Positions 9,835 to 30,769 of a DNA stretch of 42,151 nt are shown piece after piece. The notes below the pieces were generated by a model. That model was not told the DNA's origin and did not search any database. It was given only the letters and a program-made list of their open reading frames with translations. The translations under genes and the position numbers were made by a program. Location of the stretch: positions 1 to 42,151 of IMG/VR virus record IMGVR_UViG_3300043676_000010; one strand, written 5' to 3'. Each line of letters starts with the position of its first letter. The first letter of the stretch is position 1. The stretch comes from a virus. Taxonomy: Duplodnaviria; Caudoviricetes.

Positions 9835-10409
9835 TAACTGAAAAAGCCTTTAACGATTCAGCGACACTTTTAGGAGTTGAACCGGCAACAATCAAAGCAG
9901 TTGCAGAAGTTGAAAGCTCCGGTGATGGGTTTCTTCCTTCAGGCCATCCTAAAATCCTTTTTGAGCCTCATAAGTTTTGGCAACAATTAAAAGCTCGTGG
10001 AATTGACCCTACAAAGATCACAGGGGCTTCAGATATTCTTTATAAGGATTGGGGAAGTAAACCCTACGGTAAAAATTCAGCTCAGCCTGAACGATTAGAA
10101 AGGGCAATAAAGATAAATAAGGATGCTGCCTTGAGTTCTGCAAGTTGGGGCAAGTTCCAAATCATGGGCTTCAATTACGAATTAGCCGGATTTGCTACTT
10201 TAGATGCTTTTGTTGCAGCCATGCACATTGACGAGGATCAGCATTTGTTTGCTTTTATAAACTTTGTAAAAAGTAAGAACCTTGTTGATGAACTTCAAAG
10301 AAAACATTGGGCTGGCTTTGCGAAGGTTTACAACGGATCGGGGTACAAGGCGAATAAGTATGATGAGAAGTTGGCGGCGGCATATAATAAATTCAAAGCA
10401 AGTCTCTAA
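9831..10409 (+). CDS. Endolysin, N-acetylmuramidase (DUF3380/Muraidase family)
   Basis: AVAEVES, PKILFEPH, SASWGKFQIMGFNY, FAKVYNG motifs. Confidence 0.9.
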   Translation: MITEKAFNDSATLLGVEPATIKAVAEVESSGDGFLPSGHPKILFEPHKFWQQLKARGIDPTKITGASDILYKDWGSKPYGKNSAQPERLERAIKINKDAALSSASWGKFQIMGFNYELAGFATLDAFVAAMHIDEDQHLFAFINFVKSKNLVDELQRKHWAGFAKVYNGSGYKANKYDEKLAAAYNKFKASL

Positions 10410-10788
10410 TTTCAGACAAGTAAGACATTTCAGTATTTGGACGAGGAATGTAATCTTCTGAATCTCCATCTTGAACATCAGCCCTATCATCAAAATAATC
10501 TTCAAGTCTGCTTAATAATTCTTTCAGTCTTTCTATTTCTTGGTCTTTCTCCTTTAATGAGGATTGGAGGGCGGTGATTTGTTCCCGTTGTTTTGACATG
10601 GTTATATCGTCTTCATTGTGTAAATCTTGGAAGTATTCGTTTTGCTTTTCCAATTCTTCCCGCCCATCGGTTGCAAGTTGGGCAATAGAAGATGCGCTAT
10701 GATAAATTACCCATTCACCATTTCTGTAAATTGAAATAGATTCTTTGCTTGGACTTTCCATTATCATTCCCTCTTTTTCTGTTTCCAT
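10393..10788 (-). CDS. Hypothetical protein (coiled coil)
   Basis: Last ORF of the leftward block, converging on the endolysin. Confidence 0.6.
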   Translation of the reverse strand: METEKEGMIMESPSKESISIYRNGEWVIYHSASSIAQLATDGREELEKQNEYFQDLHNEDDITMSKQREQITALQSSLKEKDQEIERLKELLSRLEDYFDDRADVQDGDSEDYIPRPNTEMSYLSEIRDLL

Positions 10789-10799
10789 TAATTAAAATT

Positions 10800-11045
10800 T
10801 TAATATCGTTTTCCACAATTATTACAATAAGAATATCCGGCAACCATTGTGAACCCTTTTTCTTTTTTACATTCACATACCCACCCCTTTTCCAATTTTT
10901 CCCCATCGGTTGCAAACAATTTAATTATTTCATCGGCAAATATTGATTTATATTCTCCTCGTTGTTCGGCATCGTCGGTTTCTCTTATATAATCGTAATA
11001 TTTATTAAACAGTTTTTTTACTTCCTCTTTCGGTATAGTTGACAT
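10800..11045 (-). CDS. Hypothetical protein with C-terminal Cys cluster
   Basis: CEC...CNNCG possible Zn ribbon. Confidence 0.6.
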   Translation of the reverse strand: MSTIPKEEVKKLFNKYYDYIRETDDAEQRGEYKSIFADEIIKLFATDGEKLEKGWVCECKKEKGFTMVAGYSYCNNCGKRY

Positions 11046-11056
11046 AAATTATAATT

Positions 11057-11287
11057 TTAATTGGTTAGGTACTCTTTTGGTAATGTTCTTTTGCAGCCGC
11101 CAAAGGTGTTATCGTTAAGGCACTCCCCTGTTTTTTTATCAAACCTATATTCTGGTTCTCCTGCATCAACTTGGATATAATCTTTCCCAATCTTAGATAC
11201 AAACGTTTCCTCTTGGCTAATCAGGCCAAAGCCATGAAAGTTGAATTTTATTTTATCCCCTTTTTTTATCTTCGGTATAGTTGACAT
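11057..11287 (-). CDS. Hypothetical protein
   Basis: Tight packing; same MSTIPK start as neighbour. Confidence 0.6.
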   Translation of the reverse strand: MSTIPKIKKGDKIKFNFHGFGLISQEETFVSKIGKDYIQVDAGEPEYRFDKKTGECLNDNTFGGCKRTLPKEYLTN

Positions 11288-11292
11288 TGTTT

Positions 11293-11520
11293 TTATTTTT
11301 GGTTTGAGTGGTTGACAATAATTGTAATTCGTTCACAATCTTTTGGGTCAATAAGTTTTCCTTTATGAGTCCCATTAATTACTTCATAAACTGAAGGCCA
11401 TTGCTTTGATTTAATTACATTAAACCATTGCCCCGCTTTGCCTGCGTACCAAATTGCCGGAAAAGCCCTGTCTGAGCCTTCCTTTGTAATCGTTACGGTA
11501 AACGGTTTGTTGTCCTTCAT
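11293..11520 (-). CDS. Hypothetical protein
   Basis: Packing and A-rich upstream region. Confidence 0.55.
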   Translation of the reverse strand: MKDNKPFTVTITKEGSDRAFPAIWYAGKAGQWFNVIKSKQWPSVYEVINGTHKGKLIDPKDCERITIIVNHSNQK

Positions 11521-11641
11521 AATTTTTATTTTTTATCCCCCGAAAGGGTTTTGTTTAATTTGTTTGTCAGCTTCATTGCTACTATTGGGCATCGTTGCGA
11601 CGCTCCGTTCAGGGTTCTGTTCGCTATTAGGCAATAAAACG

Positions 11642-11802
11642 TGGGGAGAGGCGGAATCAAACCGCCGACCTTCAGATTATCAGTCTGACGCTCTACCAAC
11701 TACAAGGCTTCCGAATTAATTAGATACTTCCACCTTGTATAACATATCCTTTCCCGACTGCGCACTTTCGGTACTTACTTTTTGTTACTGAGCTATCTCC
11801 CC
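11642..11802 (-). tRNA. trnI: tRNA-Ile(GAT)-like gene interrupted by an 88-nt D-loop insert
   Basis: Acceptor GGGGAGA/TCTCCCC, D stem GCTC/GAGC, anticodon stem TCAGA/TCTGA with CT-GAT-AA loop, T stem GGCGG/CCGCC; segments 11802-11787 and 11698-11642 total 73 nt; no encoded CCA. Confidence 0.85.
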
Positions 11803-11809
11803 CGTTTTA

Positions 11810-12088
11810 TCAAATAACTTTTCTTGCATCGGCTAACGTTAAAACTATCGGCTCTTTCTTGTGGTTCATATTGTTAAAAATCTTTATTATCATATCATCC
11901 TTACCCCACTTATTAAAAGCCCAAATCAAATGCTTCGCCGATTGTCTTATTGCTTCTTCTTTCGTTTGCGCCCATTCGCTTTCGTAAGGCGTTTCTCCAT
12001 CTAAAGAATAAGTCTGCCATTGGTAGCGCATCCTTGCTGAAGGATTGCCCCTGCGTTCATCGTTTTCAATTTCTAATTCGTAGCCCAT
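11810..12088 (-). CDS. Hypothetical protein
   Basis: 92 aa ORF between structured leader and tRNA. Confidence 0.6.
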   Translation of the reverse strand: MGYELEIENDERRGNPSARMRYQWQTYSLDGETPYESEWAQTKEEAIRQSAKHLIWAFNKWGKDDMIIKIFNNMNHKKEPIVLTLADARKVI

Positions 12089-12229
12089 AAATATAAAAGC
12101 CCCGTGTGTAGAAGGCTTATCAATCTTATTCTCGTAAGAGAGAGATTGCGACTACACGCCGGAGCGTATTTTAAATGTAATAAATTTCTTGAAAACACGA
12201 CAATAAAATTGATAAGCACTACTAATATA
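12089..12229 (-). promoter_or_regulatory. TATATTAG box plus structured leader (element A)
   Basis: Box 12229-12222; 10-bp inverted repeat 12208-12217/12115-12124 interleaved with stem 12152-12165/12099-12111, then a U-run. Confidence 0.6.
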
Positions 12230-12382
12230 CGAAAAATATTTGACATAATGAAATTTATTTTTCTCATAGCTGAATAGAATTACTGAACGATGAAAGGATT
12301 GCGACGCAACAGGCGATGCTATGAAAAACTTTTGTTGGTATCATAACTTTTTATAATTCCCCCGTCTAAAGACGGAAGCGGT

Positions 12383-13000
12383 TTAGAGATTGTTTTCGGT
12401 TTTGAATTGTTGCCAAACGGGTTCTGTAAAAAACATTAAGCCTTTTCTATTAGCCTTGTGTTTATCCAATAATAGCCATACCGAATTGGTAGATAATTTA
12501 ACCCCGATTGAAGCCCTTTTTATTGAGTTAAATTGCCCAACCAATTCTTTTGTTTTTGAATTATACACAATAACGGGGATACAGCTTTTTCTTAACCCGG
12601 TATCAACCGCATGATCGTGGTTCTCTTTGTTGGTTGACCATTCAAGATTTCTGTAATAATCATTGGTCTTTACTGTATCAATATGGTTTACCTGTTTTTT
12701 CTTTTCGGGGTTGGGATGCCATGCAGTACAAACCAATCTGCTGACTTTCTTATTCTTGGACTCCCCGTTTTTCCACAACGAAACTATATTATAACCAAAC
12801 CTATTTACTGTTTTTGCAATCAGTTGCGATTTTAGCGTTCTGTAACCATTTTTCGTTTTGGCTAATCTTTTAACCGACCTTATTCTGCCAAATGAGCTAA
12901 CCTCATATACGCCTTCATATCCGGCAATATCTGTAAAGTATTCGTACTCGCCCAATAGCGGCAATATTGGCCTCGGCTTATTTATTGTTTCTAAGTTCAT
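12383..13000 (-). CDS. NUMOD4-HNH homing endonuclease
   Basis: DIAGYEGVYEVSSFGRIRS (NUMOD4); VNHIDTVKTND...NLEW (HNH); C-terminal NUMOD1-like FNSIKRAS. Confidence 0.9.
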   Translation of the reverse strand: MNLETINKPRPILPLLGEYEYFTDIAGYEGVYEVSSFGRIRSVKRLAKTKNGYRTLKSQLIAKTVNRFGYNIVSLWKNGESKNKKVSRLVCTAWHPNPEKKKQVNHIDTVKTNDYYRNLEWSTNKENHDHAVDTGLRKSCIPVIVYNSKTKELVGQFNSIKRASIGVKLSTNSVWLLLDKHKANRKGLMFFTEPVWQQFKTENNL

Positions 13001-19609: not shown

Positions 19610-19866
19610 ACGACGATCTATTCGGAGACGTAATGAAACAACCAGAAGGTGAAGAGTGGCGAGAGCATTGGAAAGGTATGCCAGAGTTTAAGCAGCTTGA
19701 TGCAGAGCCTTGGAAGTCAGTCGTAGTACATTTTGAGGATGAGAAAGCGATGCTGGACTTCGCTAAAATGATGGATCAGAAAATCACATTCAAAACACCG
19801 TCGATATGGTACCCTAAAGTTGACAGAGTAGCCGCTATTGATAAAATATGGACTGACAAAGTATGA
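19606..19866 (+). CDS. Small protein coupled to the glycosyltransferase gene
   Basis: EHWKGMPEF; ATGA overlap with the next gene. Confidence 0.65.
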   Translation: MNDDLFGDVMKQPEGEEWREHWKGMPEFKQLDAEPWKSVVVHFEDEKAMLDFAKMMDQKITFKTPSIWYPKVDRVAAIDKIWTDKV

Positions 19867-20696
19867 ACCCCAGACATCCTATCTATGTAATATCTAAGGG
19901 CCGCTCTGAGTCGCGCCTAACAGCTCGGGCACTGGAGATGATGAGAGTACCATACCAGATTGTAATTGAGCCCCAAGAGCTGGAACAGTACTCACAGGTA
20001 ATTGATCCGGCTAAAATACTCGTATTGCCTTTCTCAAACTTAGGGCAAGGCTCTATCCCGGCCAGAAACTTCGTATGGGAGCACTCTTTTGGACGATCCA
20101 CGCACCATTGGATTCTTGATGATAATATCAATGGCTTTGGTAGGCTGACCGGCAATATGAAGATCCACGTCGATTCAGGCACTATTCTACGAGCAGCCGA
20201 GGATTTCGTGGACCGCTACGAGAACATTAGTATGGCAGGGTTCGAGTATGATTACTTCCTGCCACGCAAGGTTAAGGTCGATCCTTACCGGCTTAATACC
20301 AGGGTTTACTCGAATATTCTGATTAAGAACGATCTACCATTCAGGTGGCGGGGAAAGTATAACGAAGACACCGATCTATCGCTTAGAGTGCTGAAAGCAG
20401 GGTATTGTACCGTATTATTCCAAGCATTTATAGCCTACAAAGTACCGACTCTAATGATGAAAGGCGGTAATACTGATTCGGTTTATGCCACTGGAGATAA
20501 GAGGCGAGAGTTTGCTGAATCTCTGAAAGCTCAGCACCCAGATGTAACTGAGGTAGTATGGAGATACGGCCGTTGGCATCATGATGTAGATTACAGAAGG
20601 TTTTCGTATAATAAACTGATTAGAAAAACCGGAATTAAGATACCTACTGAAGATCAGTACCCTATGGAGATTAAAAATGTTAATAACTTTATTTGA
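19863..20696 (+). CDS. TAGT/GREB1-like glycosyltransferase (putative DNA modification)
   Basis: PIYVISKGR, ARNFVWE, WILDDN, EDTDLSLRVL, MKGGNT. Confidence 0.75.
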   Translation: MNPRHPIYVISKGRSESRLTARALEMMRVPYQIVIEPQELEQYSQVIDPAKILVLPFSNLGQGSIPARNFVWEHSFGRSTHHWILDDNINGFGRLTGNMKIHVDSGTILRAAEDFVDRYENISMAGFEYDYFLPRKVKVDPYRLNTRVYSNILIKNDLPFRWRGKYNEDTDLSLRVLKAGYCTVLFQAFIAYKVPTLMMKGGNTDSVYATGDKRREFAESLKAQHPDVTEVVWRYGRWHHDVDYRRFSYNKLIRKTGIKIPTEDQYPMEIKNVNNFI

Positions 20697-27165: not shown

Positions 27166-27488
27166 AAAAGATTAAAGAAACAAGTATGAGTATAATAGCT
27201 GATAAGTACATTGAGAAACTCAGAATATCATCTTCGTCTATTGATAAACGCAGAGATATAGACAGAAGGTTAGGGTTTGTTGCCGGGTGGAAAGGCGCTG
27301 AAGAAATAACAAATACTTATATTGATCTTTTTGAAAATTGTAATAAAAGACTTAATGAATTAATTGAAGAAAATGATAGGTTAAAAAATCTTATTGAAAA
27401 AATGTATGTAGATCATTGGAGGCATAGGGTATCTAGTAAACCATTAGTAGATACGTTACGTCAATTCAAACAAGATAATAACCTATGA
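27162..27488 (+). CDS. Hypothetical protein
   Basis: ATGA overlaps; ends QFKQDNNL. Confidence 0.55.
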   Translation: MKKIKETSMSIIADKYIEKLRISSSSIDKRRDIDRRLGFVAGWKGAEEITNTYIDLFENCNKRLNELIEENDRLKNLIEKMYVDHWRHRVSSKPLVDTLRQFKQDNNL

Positions 27489-28123
27489 CAGTCGCATACC
27501 CCCTCAAATCCCAATCTGACTACTCAGAACTAAAGTACTCGCTAAGATCAATTGAAAGATTTTATAGAGGTAATGAAGTTGTAATCATTGGCAGTAAGTT
27601 ACCGGACTGGATTGATAACGTAACCTGGATAAGGGTTGAAGATATACCGAATAGGAAGCAATTAACGATCAAGTACAAAATATTAGCAGCGTTAGAATAT
27701 ACAGATGAAATATATTTTATGAACGATGATGTTTTCTTACTTGAGCCGCCTACATTCAAATATTACTATCACGGTGATCTGGCTTCAGTAGGTGAATCAG
27801 GAGCAAGGCCGTTACTGAAGCAGTTGCAGTCATTCGGTAAACCAACTAAGAATTTCGATGGTCATTTCGCACTGGTATATCGTAAAGACTTTGCGAAGGT
27901 ATTGGATAACTTTGCACATGATGTAATTGTGAAGAGTGCGTATTGCAATTATTTAGAGATCGAAGGTGAGAAGATAGCTGATAATAAAATTATTGGTAAG
28001 AAAGTAGATGTTAAACAGTTTATCAAAGATCGTTCATCAATATCAACTGGTGAGAGTAGTTGGGCAGTAGTGCAGCCTGTAGTTGCGGAGATATTTAAAC
28101 AGAAATCAATGTATGAGAAATGA
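27485..28123 (+). CDS. Stealth-like sugar-phosphotransferase
   Basis: ELKYSLRSIE...PDW...IYFMNDDVF resembles Stealth CR2. Confidence 0.7.
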   Translation: MTVAYPLKSQSDYSELKYSLRSIERFYRGNEVVIIGSKLPDWIDNVTWIRVEDIPNRKQLTIKYKILAALEYTDEIYFMNDDVFLLEPPTFKYYYHGDLASVGESGARPLLKQLQSFGKPTKNFDGHFALVYRKDFAKVLDNFAHDVIVKSAYCNYLEIEGEKIADNKIIGKKVDVKQFIKDRSSISTGESSWAVVQPVVAEIFKQKSMYEK

Positions 28124-28767
28124 TTCAGAACGTACCACTCAGTTTTTATTGTTCACGTCTAGACGCGGGCGAAAACTTTAAGTTCCTTCGCTTCGGCGAT
28201 GGTGAGTTTCATTGTTACTTAGGTAGTGATATTGTAATTGGTAAGAACGAGCATGATGTTTACCCGGCGTTGACAAATAAGATAAGATCAATAGTTGATA
28301 ATTTAAACCCTTCTCACTTTAATGCTTTACAGCCATATAGTTTAACTATACCGGAATTTCAATCTATCATACCAGATATTAATTGGCTTAATGCAGACGT
28401 ATTTCATAACGCTTCTGAAGCGGGTGAGTTAGCTCCGTTCTTTAGGTCGTTGAGCAAACGGGATGTTGTATTGGTTAGTAACTGGGAGAAAAGGAAGTTC
28501 AATAAGTCTTGGGGATTCTTGGAAGTTATAACCAGGAATAGCTTCGATGATTACGAATGGGTATTGGAAGGCGTTACCAAATACCCAAAGAATACGGTAT
28601 TTTTATTCGCGGCATCCCGTCTATCAGTCCCGGTTATCTATGACGGGCCTGAAGATTGTACTATGATTGATATTGGTTCGTTATTAGATCCATATATTGG
28701 GAAGATAACGAGAAGGTATCATACGAAAATGACTGAAGAGATAATGAAACGTAACTTAGAAATATGA
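28120..28767 (+). CDS. GT-D fold (DUF1792-like) glycosyltransferase
   Basis: FLRFGDGE and IDIGSLLD motifs. Confidence 0.7.
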   Translation: MIQNVPLSFYCSRLDAGENFKFLRFGDGEFHCYLGSDIVIGKNEHDVYPALTNKIRSIVDNLNPSHFNALQPYSLTIPEFQSIIPDINWLNADVFHNASEAGELAPFFRSLSKRDVVLVSNWEKRKFNKSWGFLEVITRNSFDDYEWVLEGVTKYPKNTVFLFAASRLSVPVIYDGPEDCTMIDIGSLLDPYIGKITRRYHTKMTEEIMKRNLEI

Positions 28768-29684
28768 CAATCGGCTTTCTCATACGAACAGGCGGAATAT
28801 TCGGATCAGTCAGAGAAGTGATCGAGAACGGTAACGTACTTACTGACTTAGGCCACGATGTAACTATTTACACAGATCACGGTAAAGACTTAGGTTGGTT
28901 GCCGAACATCTGCCAATGGGAATCTAACGAGAAAATAAAGCCGCTAGATTGTTTAATATTCATTGATGACCCTGATGAGAAATATTACGAATTATTTAAA
29001 CGAGCTGAAGCGAAAGTAAAAGCCTATTGTATGTTGGGGTTTGATAAATCCAGAATCAACGGGCAGTTTGTTTCACCAGTTCATCACGAATTAATAACTA
29101 ACTACTGGCCGATGGCTGATTCTGATTGGCAGTTGGAGATCATTAGGTACTTCAACCCGGATTGCGGCCCGTCAATCGGTGGTATCAATACAACTCAATT
29201 CAAACCAGTAGTAAGAAAGAAGATGTTTGATGTTTCGTGGTCTAATGATCCACGCCCTCGTAAGGATAGCAAGACTGTAGCTGCTGCAATCGGGAAGATC
29301 AGTAATAAATCATATTACCGTAAAGGTATCAAGCAAGACGACTTAAAGAAGTTCCTCTGCGATAGCCGTGTCTTTGTAGACGGTCACGTCAGAGGCGGGT
29401 GGTGTAATCCAGTAGCTGAAGCAATGGCCTGTGGCGTGCCTGTAGTGTGTACAGAGACGCCCTGTAACTCTTCATTTGCGATAGATGACTTTACTTGTAT
29501 AAGGGTTAAAGAAGGTGATAGTGTTGGGATGAGAGCGGGGATATTGAAGTTGCTGAGTAACGAGCAGTATGCAAAGTATCTTTCCGGTAATGCTCTGGAT
29601 CTTATTAGGAAGTTTGATTACAGGATTGTGGGGAAACGATTATCTGAAGCAATAATAAGCAAGGTTAATGCAGCCACTAATTAA
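28764..29684 (+). CDS. GT-B (GT4-like) glycosyltransferase
   Basis: LGHDVTIY; GWCNPVAEAMACGVPVV. Confidence 0.85.
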   Translation: MTIGFLIRTGGIFGSVREVIENGNVLTDLGHDVTIYTDHGKDLGWLPNICQWESNEKIKPLDCLIFIDDPDEKYYELFKRAEAKVKAYCMLGFDKSRINGQFVSPVHHELITNYWPMADSDWQLEIIRYFNPDCGPSIGGINTTQFKPVVRKKMFDVSWSNDPRPRKDSKTVAAAIGKISNKSYYRKGIKQDDLKKFLCDSRVFVDGHVRGGWCNPVAEAMACGVPVVCTETPCNSSFAIDDFTCIRVKEGDSVGMRAGILKLLSNEQYAKYLSGNALDLIRKFDYRIVGKRLSEAIISKVNAATN

Positions 29685-30273
29685 TATACTGATCCGAACT
29701 TCACAGAGAAAGTTTTTATTTGAGAGATGTTTAGCATCTATTATATCGCAAACGTATAAGAATATCAGGATAATTGTTAGTTATGATTTTGAATGTAATT
29801 ATATTCCTGATTGGTGTGATAAGATAAGAGTGCAGAAAGGTGATAGTGGTTATTACTGGAATCTTTATTTGAATGAACTTAAAGAGAAAGTTAATGAAGG
29901 ATGGTTTATTATCATAGATGACGATGATTTCATTTACTCAAAGTCTGCAATCGGGGATATAGTTAAGCACTTAACAAATCCAGAAGTTGGTATTATCTGC
30001 CAGTTCCTTCGTGGTCAGATGCGAAAACCTGGATTGGTTCAGATGAGAAATAAAACCATTAAACGTGGATTAATTGGTATGCCTTGTATTATCTTACATT
30101 ATAGTAAAAAGAATATAGCTATGTTCGATGGACTACCAGCAGCGGATTATAGATTTATTCAAGACGTATCGAAAGTGTTACCGTTAGAATGGGTTGAGAA
30201 AGTAATTGTAAAAACTGATCGGATAGGGAAAGGGAAACCGCACAATGTTACACATAATAGAGCCATACGATAA
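29668..30273 (+). CDS. GT-A (GT2-like) glycosyltransferase
   Basis: PLINILIRT...SIISQTYKN...IIDDDD. Confidence 0.8.
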   Translation: MQPLINILIRTSQRKFLFERCLASIISQTYKNIRIIVSYDFECNYIPDWCDKIRVQKGDSGYYWNLYLNELKEKVNEGWFIIIDDDDFIYSKSAIGDIVKHLTNPEVGIICQFLRGQMRKPGLVQMRNKTIKRGLIGMPCIILHYSKKNIAMFDGLPAADYRFIQDVSKVLPLEWVEKVIVKTDRIGKGKPHNVTHNRAIR

Positions 30274-30769
30274 CGAAAAGAACTTAGGCAGAGCTTACAA
30301 CGAAGCTATGAAGTACTACAATGCTGATGATTGGGTATGCTTGAAAGATCACGACACTTTGTTTCTGCTTCCAGATACTATCCGTCATATATCACGTTAT
30401 ACTGAGTTGAATCCTAATGCTGGGATATTGACTTGTTACACGAATCGTTTGGCTAATGGGGAGCAGTTAACGGGCGCAAGATGTAGCGAAAATGATTCTA
30501 TACGAAATCATATTGTAATTGCGAAAGGGGTGGAGGTGATGTTGTATGATACTACCTTACTACTAAAACCTATCTCCGGTTTCTTAATGGTAATCCGTAA
30601 GAGTACTTGGGATCGTGTTAAGTTCGATGACGGTTGTCTCGGAGTTGATAACAAGTATCATTTGAAAATAGTTGCTGCCGGTATGGATGTATTACGGATG
30701 AATGGAATTTATGTTTGGCATACTTATAGGTTAATTAATGGAGTTAGAGATAAAAAACATTTGATATGA
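30245..30769 (+). CDS. GT-A (GT2-like) glycosyltransferase
   Basis: LGRAYN, WVCLKDHD (DxD), ISGFLMVI, GVDN, YVWH. Confidence 0.7.
   Translation: MLHIIEPYDNEKNLGRAYNEAMKYYNADDWVCLKDHDTLFLLPDTIRHISRYTELNPNAGILTCYTNRLANGEQLTGARCSENDSIRNHIVIAKGVEVMLYDTTLLLKPISGFLMVIRKSTWDRVKFDDGCLGVDNKYHLKIVAAGMDVLRMNGIYVWHTYRLINGVRDKKHLI

Follow-up and report, generated by a model that had tools for sequence, protein, structure and literature searches.

The species 1 and 2 RNAs of phage T4 (rnaC and rnaD) and RNA1 and RNA2 of phage T5 are annotated as stable tRNA-like RNAs of 119–144 nt. They combine part of a tRNA frame with extra hairpin domains, are unspliced as far as annotated, and lie within clusters of normal tRNAs. 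An acceptor-like helix and a T arm are found in T4 rnaC and in T5 RNA1 and RNA2, and in the predicted folds none of the T4 and T5 RNAs has a canonical 5-bp anticodon arm from which an Ile anticodon could be read. tRNA genes of Lak megaphages carry "enigmatic" introns of no known class (Devoto et al. 2019, PMC6784885). These inserts are 23–141 nt long (Table S6), and start at positions 37–41, a position being stated in 14 of the 15 table rows; those of different cohorts are nearly identical. Archaeal non-canonical D-arm introns, which are BHB introns associated with EndA and RtcB, are treated in a preprint accessible in part (bioRxiv 10.64898/2026.10.13.758758). Defence systems that cleave tRNAs are well established (PMC13056530), some phage tRNAs are known to withstand host nucleases (PMC10264068, PMC11464382), and large phages carry RtcB as a general repair gene (PMC7824862).

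Here we analyzed a 42,151-nt stretch of DNA (the window), which is a whole linear virus record with an estimated completeness of 87%. It carries a D-loop-split tRNA-Ile(GAU), which is real, rare, and recurrent, and is a variant of the interrupted or tRNA-like phage RNAs. D-loop-split phage tRNAs were undescribed in the full texts searched, mostly outside subscription journals. The gene has the tRNA-like acceptor, T arm, and extra domains of the T4/T5 type. Unlike the T4 and T5 RNAs, it keeps the full Ile(GAU) body, carries the extra domain within the D-loop, and is the sole tRNA-like gene detected in the window by ARAGORN and Rfam. Its insert resembles the Lak introns in belonging to no known class, but it lies in the D-loop (positions 15–17) and has no sequence homologue, in contrast to the Lak introns as described in the available portion of that report. 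The insert occupies the same tRNA region as the archaeal D-arm introns; unlike those, it shows no 4-bp central helix, and the repeat downstream of the gene matches Bacteroidota. The comparison with the antisense RNAs C4 of P1 and CI of P4 made in the original prediction appears a poor fit, as the full Ile anticodon arm and the D stem are retained. Rfam gave no match to these RNAs for the gene or the insert.

Body of the tRNA and its D-loop insert

The features of the locus are listed in Table 1. The gene agrees with canonical tRNA-Ile(GAU) (RF00005) in every stem, in the anticodon loop, in A73, and in most of the tertiary contacts, and differs in its 96-nt D-loop, U56, and a 9-bp leader-trailer helix. 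The 7/4/5/5 stems of the canonical cloverleaf are present, with GAU, A37, A38, and A73, and all pairs of the acceptor, D, anticodon, and T stems are Watson-Crick (21/21), as had been claimed; such perfect pairing occurs in 14 of 90 canonical phage tRNA-Ile(GAU) genes. In contrast, the D-loop far exceeds the canonical 7–11 nt, and the G19-C56 elbow pair is absent. When the 88 nt were cut out by script, ARAGORN called the remaining 74 nt as tRNA-Ile(gat), in agreement with the claim that removal of the insert restores a canonical D-loop. ARAGORN at default settings called no tRNA in the whole window, and Rfam (RF00005) matched only the 3′ part of the unspliced gene (32.5 bits).

Table 1 Positions of the split tRNA-Ile(GAU) gene, its insert, and neighboring features in the window.
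Feature	Position	Strand	Remarks
Split tRNA-Ile(GAU) gene, whole	11802-11642	minus	
tRNA 5′ part, positions 1-16	11787..11802	-	acceptor 5′ strand, D stem 5′ strand, A14 G15 U16
D-loop insert, 88 nt	11699..11786	-	at position 15-17; register ambiguous up to 3 nt
Arm A of insert, 5 bp	11740..11787	-	11787-11783 with 11744-11740
Arm B of insert, 7 bp	11701..11739	-	11739-11733 with 11707-11701; ends 3 nt before G18
tRNA 3′ part	11642..11698	-	U17 to discriminator A73
Anticodon GAU	11681-11679	-	3′ part also with A37, A38
U56	11659	-	no CCA encoded at 3′ end
5′ flank of 9-bp acceptor extension	11803..11811	-	pairs with 3′ flank, A73 bulged; overlaps upstream ORF stop codon
3′ flank, partner strand of extension	11633..11641	-	
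92-aa orphan ORF	11810..12088	-	directly upstream of tRNA; variable cassette, missing from relatives
Free-standing NUMOD4-HNH endonuclease gene	12383-13000	-	580 nt upstream of tRNA

The tertiary contacts U8-A14-A21, A9-A23-U12, G15-C48, G18-U55, U54-A58, and G26-A44 and the triples 13-22-46 and 10-25-45 are kept, and G19-C56 is the sole core tertiary contact lost. Both U56 and the missing CCA were correctly noted before. U56 is rare, being found in none of 90 canonical phage Ile(GAU) genes and in 30 of 1156 phage tRNAs overall, whereas the absence of CCA is ordinary (38 of the 90). The strong Ile determinants (anticodon, A37, and A73) are present, as is U12-A23, and two pairs that serve as minor determinants in E. 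coli, C4-G69 and C29-G41, are missing. The D-loop carries Ile editing determinants (PMC9976931), and these are disrupted since the insert interrupts this loop. Ile codon use in the window is high (ATT, 31.7 per 1000).

Pairing of the two flanks lengthens the acceptor stem by 9 bp, a feature absent from the earlier reading of the sequence. Acceptor extensions of at least 9 bp were found in 7 of 1156 canonical phage tRNA genes, as counted by a script that tolerated small bulges and placed the row of the window gene one base off register. Leader-trailer helices of at least 7 bp, and up to 15, were also seen in canonical phage tRNA-Asn, -Tyr, and -His genes (L390, L180, L226, L227, L177, and L265). 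RNase P acts more slowly when the leader is paired with the 3′ end (PMC9433436); because leader and trailer pair here, maturation by RNase P may be slow or unusual.

AGT occurs at both junctions as described, which gives four equivalent registers (11789-11702 to 11786-11699) with one product. By simple arithmetic, a junction overlap of at least 3 nt has a chance of about 5%, so the AGT repeat is weak evidence. The insert is AT-rich (39% GC), has no second copy within the window, matched nothing in Rfam, and gave no intron hit at E up to 10. In a search for exact matches, the insert had no complement of more than 10 bases in the window.

The original prediction described the insert as structured, with two abutting arms. 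Both arms exist, and their abutting layout was found in 0 of 3000 shuffles and a 7-bp terminal arm in 28 of 3000, both in post hoc tests. In the whole RNA, the 7-bp arm B is the only stable insert arm (predicted pair probability 0.85–0.98). The 5-bp arm A forms in the isolated insert but has a predicted pair probability of only 0.04 in the whole RNA, where its 5′ strand favors pairing across the 3′ junction (predicted probability 0.8). The folding energy of the insert equals that of shuffles (z 0.06 and z -0.13 in two runs), and the term "structured" calls for qualification. The cloverleaf persists in the ensemble predicted for the RNA with its insert (stem probabilities 0.71–1.0), and U16, U17, and G18 are sequestered in the predicted fold. 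A second-tRNA relic at the 3′ end of the insert was considered and rejected, as the acceptor pairs solely with the far 5′ half.

Group I introns have an exon U at the 5′ site and a terminal intron G, group II introns have GUGYG..AY ends, and BHB introns have their junctions in two 3-nt bulges on either side of a 4-bp central helix. In none of the four registers did the insert show the U and G of a group I intron or the ends of a group II intron. Neither type had an Rfam match, and the insert is only 88 nt long; the claim that it is not a group I or II intron thus held. For an archaeal-type BHB intron, each register provides 1–2 of the 4 central-helix pairs. For every intron class tested, the window gene thus lacks at least one defining feature. 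Bacteroidota are not known to have EndA. Self-splicing introns in tRNAs of Patescibacteria have reportedly been described in earlier work.

Genomic setting

The window contains genes for a terminase, a muramidase, a DNA methylase, and the HNH endonuclease. Because several Bacteroidota genomes contain matches to the repeat immediately 3′ of the tRNA, Bacteroidota are the likely host of this phage. Two copies of this repeat with a near-palindromic GCGACGC core (11590-11637 and 12268-12330) flank the ORF-plus-tRNA cassette. The repeat recurs in many unrelated contigs, related phages, and some Bacteroidota genomes, and had no Rfam match.

The 92-aa ORF, which found only itself in a homologue search, and the tRNA are likely on one transcript. 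The Bacteroidota -7 promoter motif was no more frequent than expected (74 hits, one of them at 12229-12222, against 95 expected). The region upstream of the 92-aa ORF (12088-12222, minus strand) is a strongly folding leader (z -4.96, 0/200 shuffles) with a terminator-like hairpin (12118-12097), an overlapping 64-aa ORF, and no Rfam match. This leader may be a phage regulatory RNA and may resemble leaders of the C4/CI type. A link between the HNH gene and the tRNA was dropped: other runs contain identical pieces of the HNH gene but no cassette, and the eight ORFs scanned in L340, a stretch of another phage record (G008, see below), include no such nuclease.

A terminase search gave seven related loci with 66–98% identity. 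No Rfam tRNA was found in the five related phage records searched, two of which are complete, so the lineage does not maintain the tRNA throughout. One relative (G002) has the two flanking regions separated by about 270 nt, compared with about 720 nt in the window. Since relatives lack the tRNA, the flanks of G002 are closer, and the 92-aa ORF has no homologue, the tRNA is part of a lineage-variable cassette.

RtcB had no match in the window or in three relatives, two of them complete. A tyrosine integrase (PF00589) was absent from all five records searched, the window among them, and no serine integrase was seen among the 36 larger window ORFs scanned. Neither a GIY-YIG gene nor an intact second copy of the tRNA was found in the window (87% complete by estimate).

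D-loop inserts in other phage-type and cellular DNA

To find tRNAs with comparable inserts, we scanned viral, metagenomic, and cellular DNA with patterns that all require a GCTC-type D stem and would miss cases with other D stems. An anticodon-neutral scan of viral contigs with gaps of 75–105 nt gave eight loci, comprising one genuine case (L008), three displaced half-copies, and four tandem or chance matches. Gaps of 45–75 nt gave 64 loci with one genuine case (L286), and gaps of 105–135 nt gave 21 loci with none genuine and one ambiguous. An Ile-specific viral scan covering 40 of 64 parts gave at least 120 loci, none genuine, and a second one gave 60 loci, with two ambiguous and one genuine, which was L008 again as a positive control. 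The metagenome scan, covering 47 of 64 parts, gave at least 120 loci. Among the 122 matches listed (including L008), 109 were displaced 5′-half copies and 13 were kept, five of them with a full 7-bp acceptor (L067, L072, L097, L117, and L127); L067, L097, and L127 have cell-type neighbors.

L008 is a tRNA-Ile(GAU) in a 128-kb phage record (G008) with a D-loop of 96 nt, as in the window. It carries the rare change G38 (1/90) and an unpaired 1-72 (3/90), and its predicted fold does not form the D stem. The 36.6 kb of G008 that hold all its Rfam tRNA hits contain 26 ARAGORN tRNAs, which include Ile(UAU) and no canonical Ile(GAU). The split tRNA-Ile(GAU) is followed by tRNA-Ala(UGC) and then by an RtcB gene (L340 5620-7147); in addition, a P-loop kinase gene lies upstream of this row and an RNase H-like gene downstream. 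Elsewhere in G008, a tRNA-like gene without a D arm lies directly before tRNA-Ile(UAU) (L340 3112-3192, G008 113112-113192). It has an acceptor, a T arm, and a long variable region, and a 5-bp hairpin in it ends in an anticodon-type loop with GAU.

L072 is a tRNA-Ile(GAU) with a 98-nt gap, an encoded CCA, and the rare change G37 (1/239), on a 1.4-kb contig in which two of three ORFs match phage families. L286 (994-1120), from a complete 225-kb phage (G009), is a tRNA shell with a D-loop insert (62-nt gap) and an abnormal anticodon loop; its insert is well folded (z -3 to -4), and the gene lies apart from the main tRNA cluster. The anticodon-neutral scans thus yielded three phage-type D-loop inserts. 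GAU in two of these three, against a baseline of 1 in 29 canonical phage tRNAs fitting the pattern, has a rough chance below 1%, a figure based on small numbers and on a scan pattern derived from the window gene itself.

The window gene, L008, and L072 have the insert position, isoacceptor, and size class in common. The search for homologues proposed in the original prediction thus succeeded in finding L008 and L072, but the three inserts share no sequence and no conserved structure. Their folding energies are those of shuffles (z -0.13, -0.27, and +0.65 for the window, L008, and L072, respectively), and an apparent motif common to the 3′ hairpins of the window and L008 was matched equally well by shuffled sequences (p 0.8 global, 0.74 local). 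Each of the three genes combines near-perfect stems with a rare change at a near-invariant loop base (U56, G38, and G37). Since L008 and L072 lack U56, this base does not characterize the family. The tally of three defects in loops and one in a stem cannot be clearly told apart from random decay (p about 0.1 by simple arithmetic), and on a looser list some departure is seen in 26 of the 90 canonical Ile genes; the pattern read from these sequences is suggestive, not significant.

Other searches gave no further case. The exact junction and 3′-exon patterns had 0 and 0 matches in viral contigs, BLAST against INPHARED returned the 3′ tRNA part or chance matches only, and in 301 Bacteroidota genomes the 150 matches listed (59 more exist) were to the 3′ exon or the downstream repeat only. 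Short D-loop inserts numbered 0 in four genomes. As the gene escapes ARAGORN at default settings and is recognized by Rfam in its 3′ part alone, altered tRNA-Ile(GAU) genes of phages could be a recurrent class that goes uncounted.

In cells, a GTDB scan gave 23 loci, comprising seven archaeal D-loop inserts, four bacterial two-hairpin palindromes, and 12 tandem or chance matches. The archaeal loci are DPANN-type genes with D-loop gaps of 83–98 nt, one of them Ile(GAU) (L441). Two-hairpin palindromes occupy the same D-loop site in spare bacterial tRNA copies (L425, L426, L437, L438, and L064), with gaps of 88–89 nt in four genomes and 75 nt in L064. The tRNA bearing the palindrome adjoins an intact copy in both bacterial genomes checked (2/2), and L064 adjoins a GIY-YIG gene. 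Ssn nucleases and NTS repeats, as presented in the available part of PMC11893778, offer a comparison for these palindromes. The window insert resembles the palindromes in insertion point, in length (88–89 nt), and in having two abutting arms that end 2–3 nt before G18. Unlike the window insert (z about 0), the palindromes are GC-rich and strongly paired (z -5.8 to -8.4), and they lie beside an intact tRNA and often a GIY-YIG gene, neither of which the window has. The window insert had no hit at E up to 10 with the palindrome model R1, a weak model that scores related palindromes at E 0.05–0.2.

Interpretation of the enlarged D-loop

We tentatively favor, at somewhat short of an even chance, the view that the gene gives an unspliced, D-loop-expanded tRNA look-alike that displays the Ile(GAU) arm, possibly as a decoy, which was one of the options in the original prediction. 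Transcription reading through from the upstream 92-aa ORF would produce the RNA, which would be kept unspliced at about 160 nt, with little or no decoding. Its maturation by RNase P would be slow or non-standard, the leader and trailer being paired. The core would be L-shaped, and the insert would form a hairpin domain of its own that protrudes at the elbow. In the weakest step, the Ile(GAU) arm may engage a host reader of tRNA-Ile(GAU), either a tRNA-cleaving defence nuclease or IleRS, and the bulky elbow would bar the look-alike from normal translation.

This view is favored because the same isoacceptor and the same site recur in unrelated phage-type DNA. As the inserts have no sequence in common, they do not represent a single recent mobile element. 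The near-perfect stems with a rare loop-base defect in each gene suggest that shape is kept and decoding relaxed, and the same defects make splicing to a normal tRNA less attractive. Survival of the core tertiary contacts other than G19-C56 and of the predicted cloverleaf with the insert in place, and the existence of the GAU-loop gene without a D arm in G008 and of the stable tRNA-like RNAs of T4 and T5, also support it. Against it, the inserts have no conserved sequence or demonstrable shared fold and fold no better than shuffles, no close homologue for covariation was found, the five related records searched lack the tRNA, the tally of loop and stem defects is compatible with random decay, and the predicted fold of L008 lacks the D stem. 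A defence nuclease specific for tRNA-Ile(GAU) was likewise not found in the phage-defence literature searched, and the cellular D-loop-inserted copies beside an intact copy look like dead spares.

The next explanation is a recently inactivated gene, that is, a normal phage tRNA-Ile that took a D-loop insertion and has begun to decay (U56). We consider this somewhat less likely than the look-alike. The D-loop after A14-G15 is a common insertion point, 109 of the 122 metagenome matches listed were displaced 5′-half copies, and Bacteroidota and other genomes have 88–89-nt two-hairpin inserts at this site. The window insert shares the two-arm geometry and has a 3-nt junction repeat. The cellular inserts beside an intact copy, the GIY-YIG gene beside L064, the absence of the cassette from relatives, and the weak fold of the insert also fit. 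The argument made earlier that intact stems speak against decay is weak, as a recent insertion would also leave them intact. Decay nevertheless requires that an AT-rich, weakly paired insert decayed for long while the exons stayed perfect. The window insert also failed to match the (weak) model of the cellular palindromes, neither a GIY-YIG gene nor an intact second copy accompanies it, and inactivation leaves the Ile(GAU) bias unexplained and the insert without a source.

The gene might instead contain a new protein-dependent intron, excised by an endonuclease and ligated by a host or phage RtcB to give a normal tRNA-Ile(GAU). D-loop-split phage tRNA-Ile(GAU) genes would then define a short, non-self-splicing, non-BHB intron class of the bacterial world, sealed by RtcB after nuclease excision; we regard both the splicing and the class as improbable. 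Clean removal restores a canonical D-loop, the split gene of G008 is the only canonical-type Ile(GAU) among its 26 ARAGORN tRNAs and has RtcB nearby, and the accessible part of the Lak report describes unexplained phage tRNA introns of similar length (PMC6784885). The Lak introns in that part start at 37–41 and not in the D-loop, and RtcB near the G008 gene is a general repair gene of large phages, going by the available part of PMC7824862. The "mini-intron" of the original prediction found no support, since no known splice geometry occurs in any of the four registers and no RtcB in the window or three relatives. Junction sequences also differ among the window gene, L008, and L072, and each spliced product would retain its rare defect. 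If splicing did occur, it would be a new intron type in phage, and phages would switch on a tRNA by splicing, with RtcB next door in G008 and host-supplied here.

Equally improbable is a working, unspliced, "armoured" tRNA-Ile, in which the elbow appendage would block a host nuclease while AUU and AUC are still decoded. The anticodon, A37, A38, A73, and U12-A23 are in place, Ile codons are frequent, flank helices of at least 9 bp exist in canonical phage tRNA genes (7/1156), and nuclease-resistant phage tRNAs are known (PMC10264068, PMC11464382). On the other hand, G19-C56 is lost, the gene has neither C4-G69 nor C29-G41, and the editing determinants of the D-loop (PMC9976931) are disrupted. 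U16, U17, and G18 are also sequestered in the predicted fold, and the literature searched contains no precedent for an 88-nt D-loop domain passing the ribosome.

An assembly artefact, named earlier as what could refute the finding, or an integrase attachment-site scar is very improbable, and the artefact reading is already largely refuted: although the sequence was seen in one run only, possibly its source, a single contig of that public run covering 10400-12382 spans the whole gene with 0 differences at a depth of about 12, no second copy of the insert exists with which a mis-join could arise, each half of the tRNA occurs a single time, and none of the five records has a tyrosine integrase. 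As the contig possibly comes from the source run, it excludes a mis-join yet gives no independent sighting. In six other DNA runs, no record covered the insert except for one of 151 nt, which aligned to 11637-11718 with 13 differences.

If the RNA of the preferred reading, the D-loop-expanded look-alike, stays unspliced, nature would here provide a tRNA scaffold that bears a large domain at its elbow, on which the role of tRNA-like RNAs of the T4/T5 type becomes testable with a molecule of clear identity. Elsewhere in the window, a TET-associated glycosyltransferase gene and several further glycosyltransferase genes (19863-20696 and 27485-30769) were found, suggesting glycosylation of DNA or of the surface.
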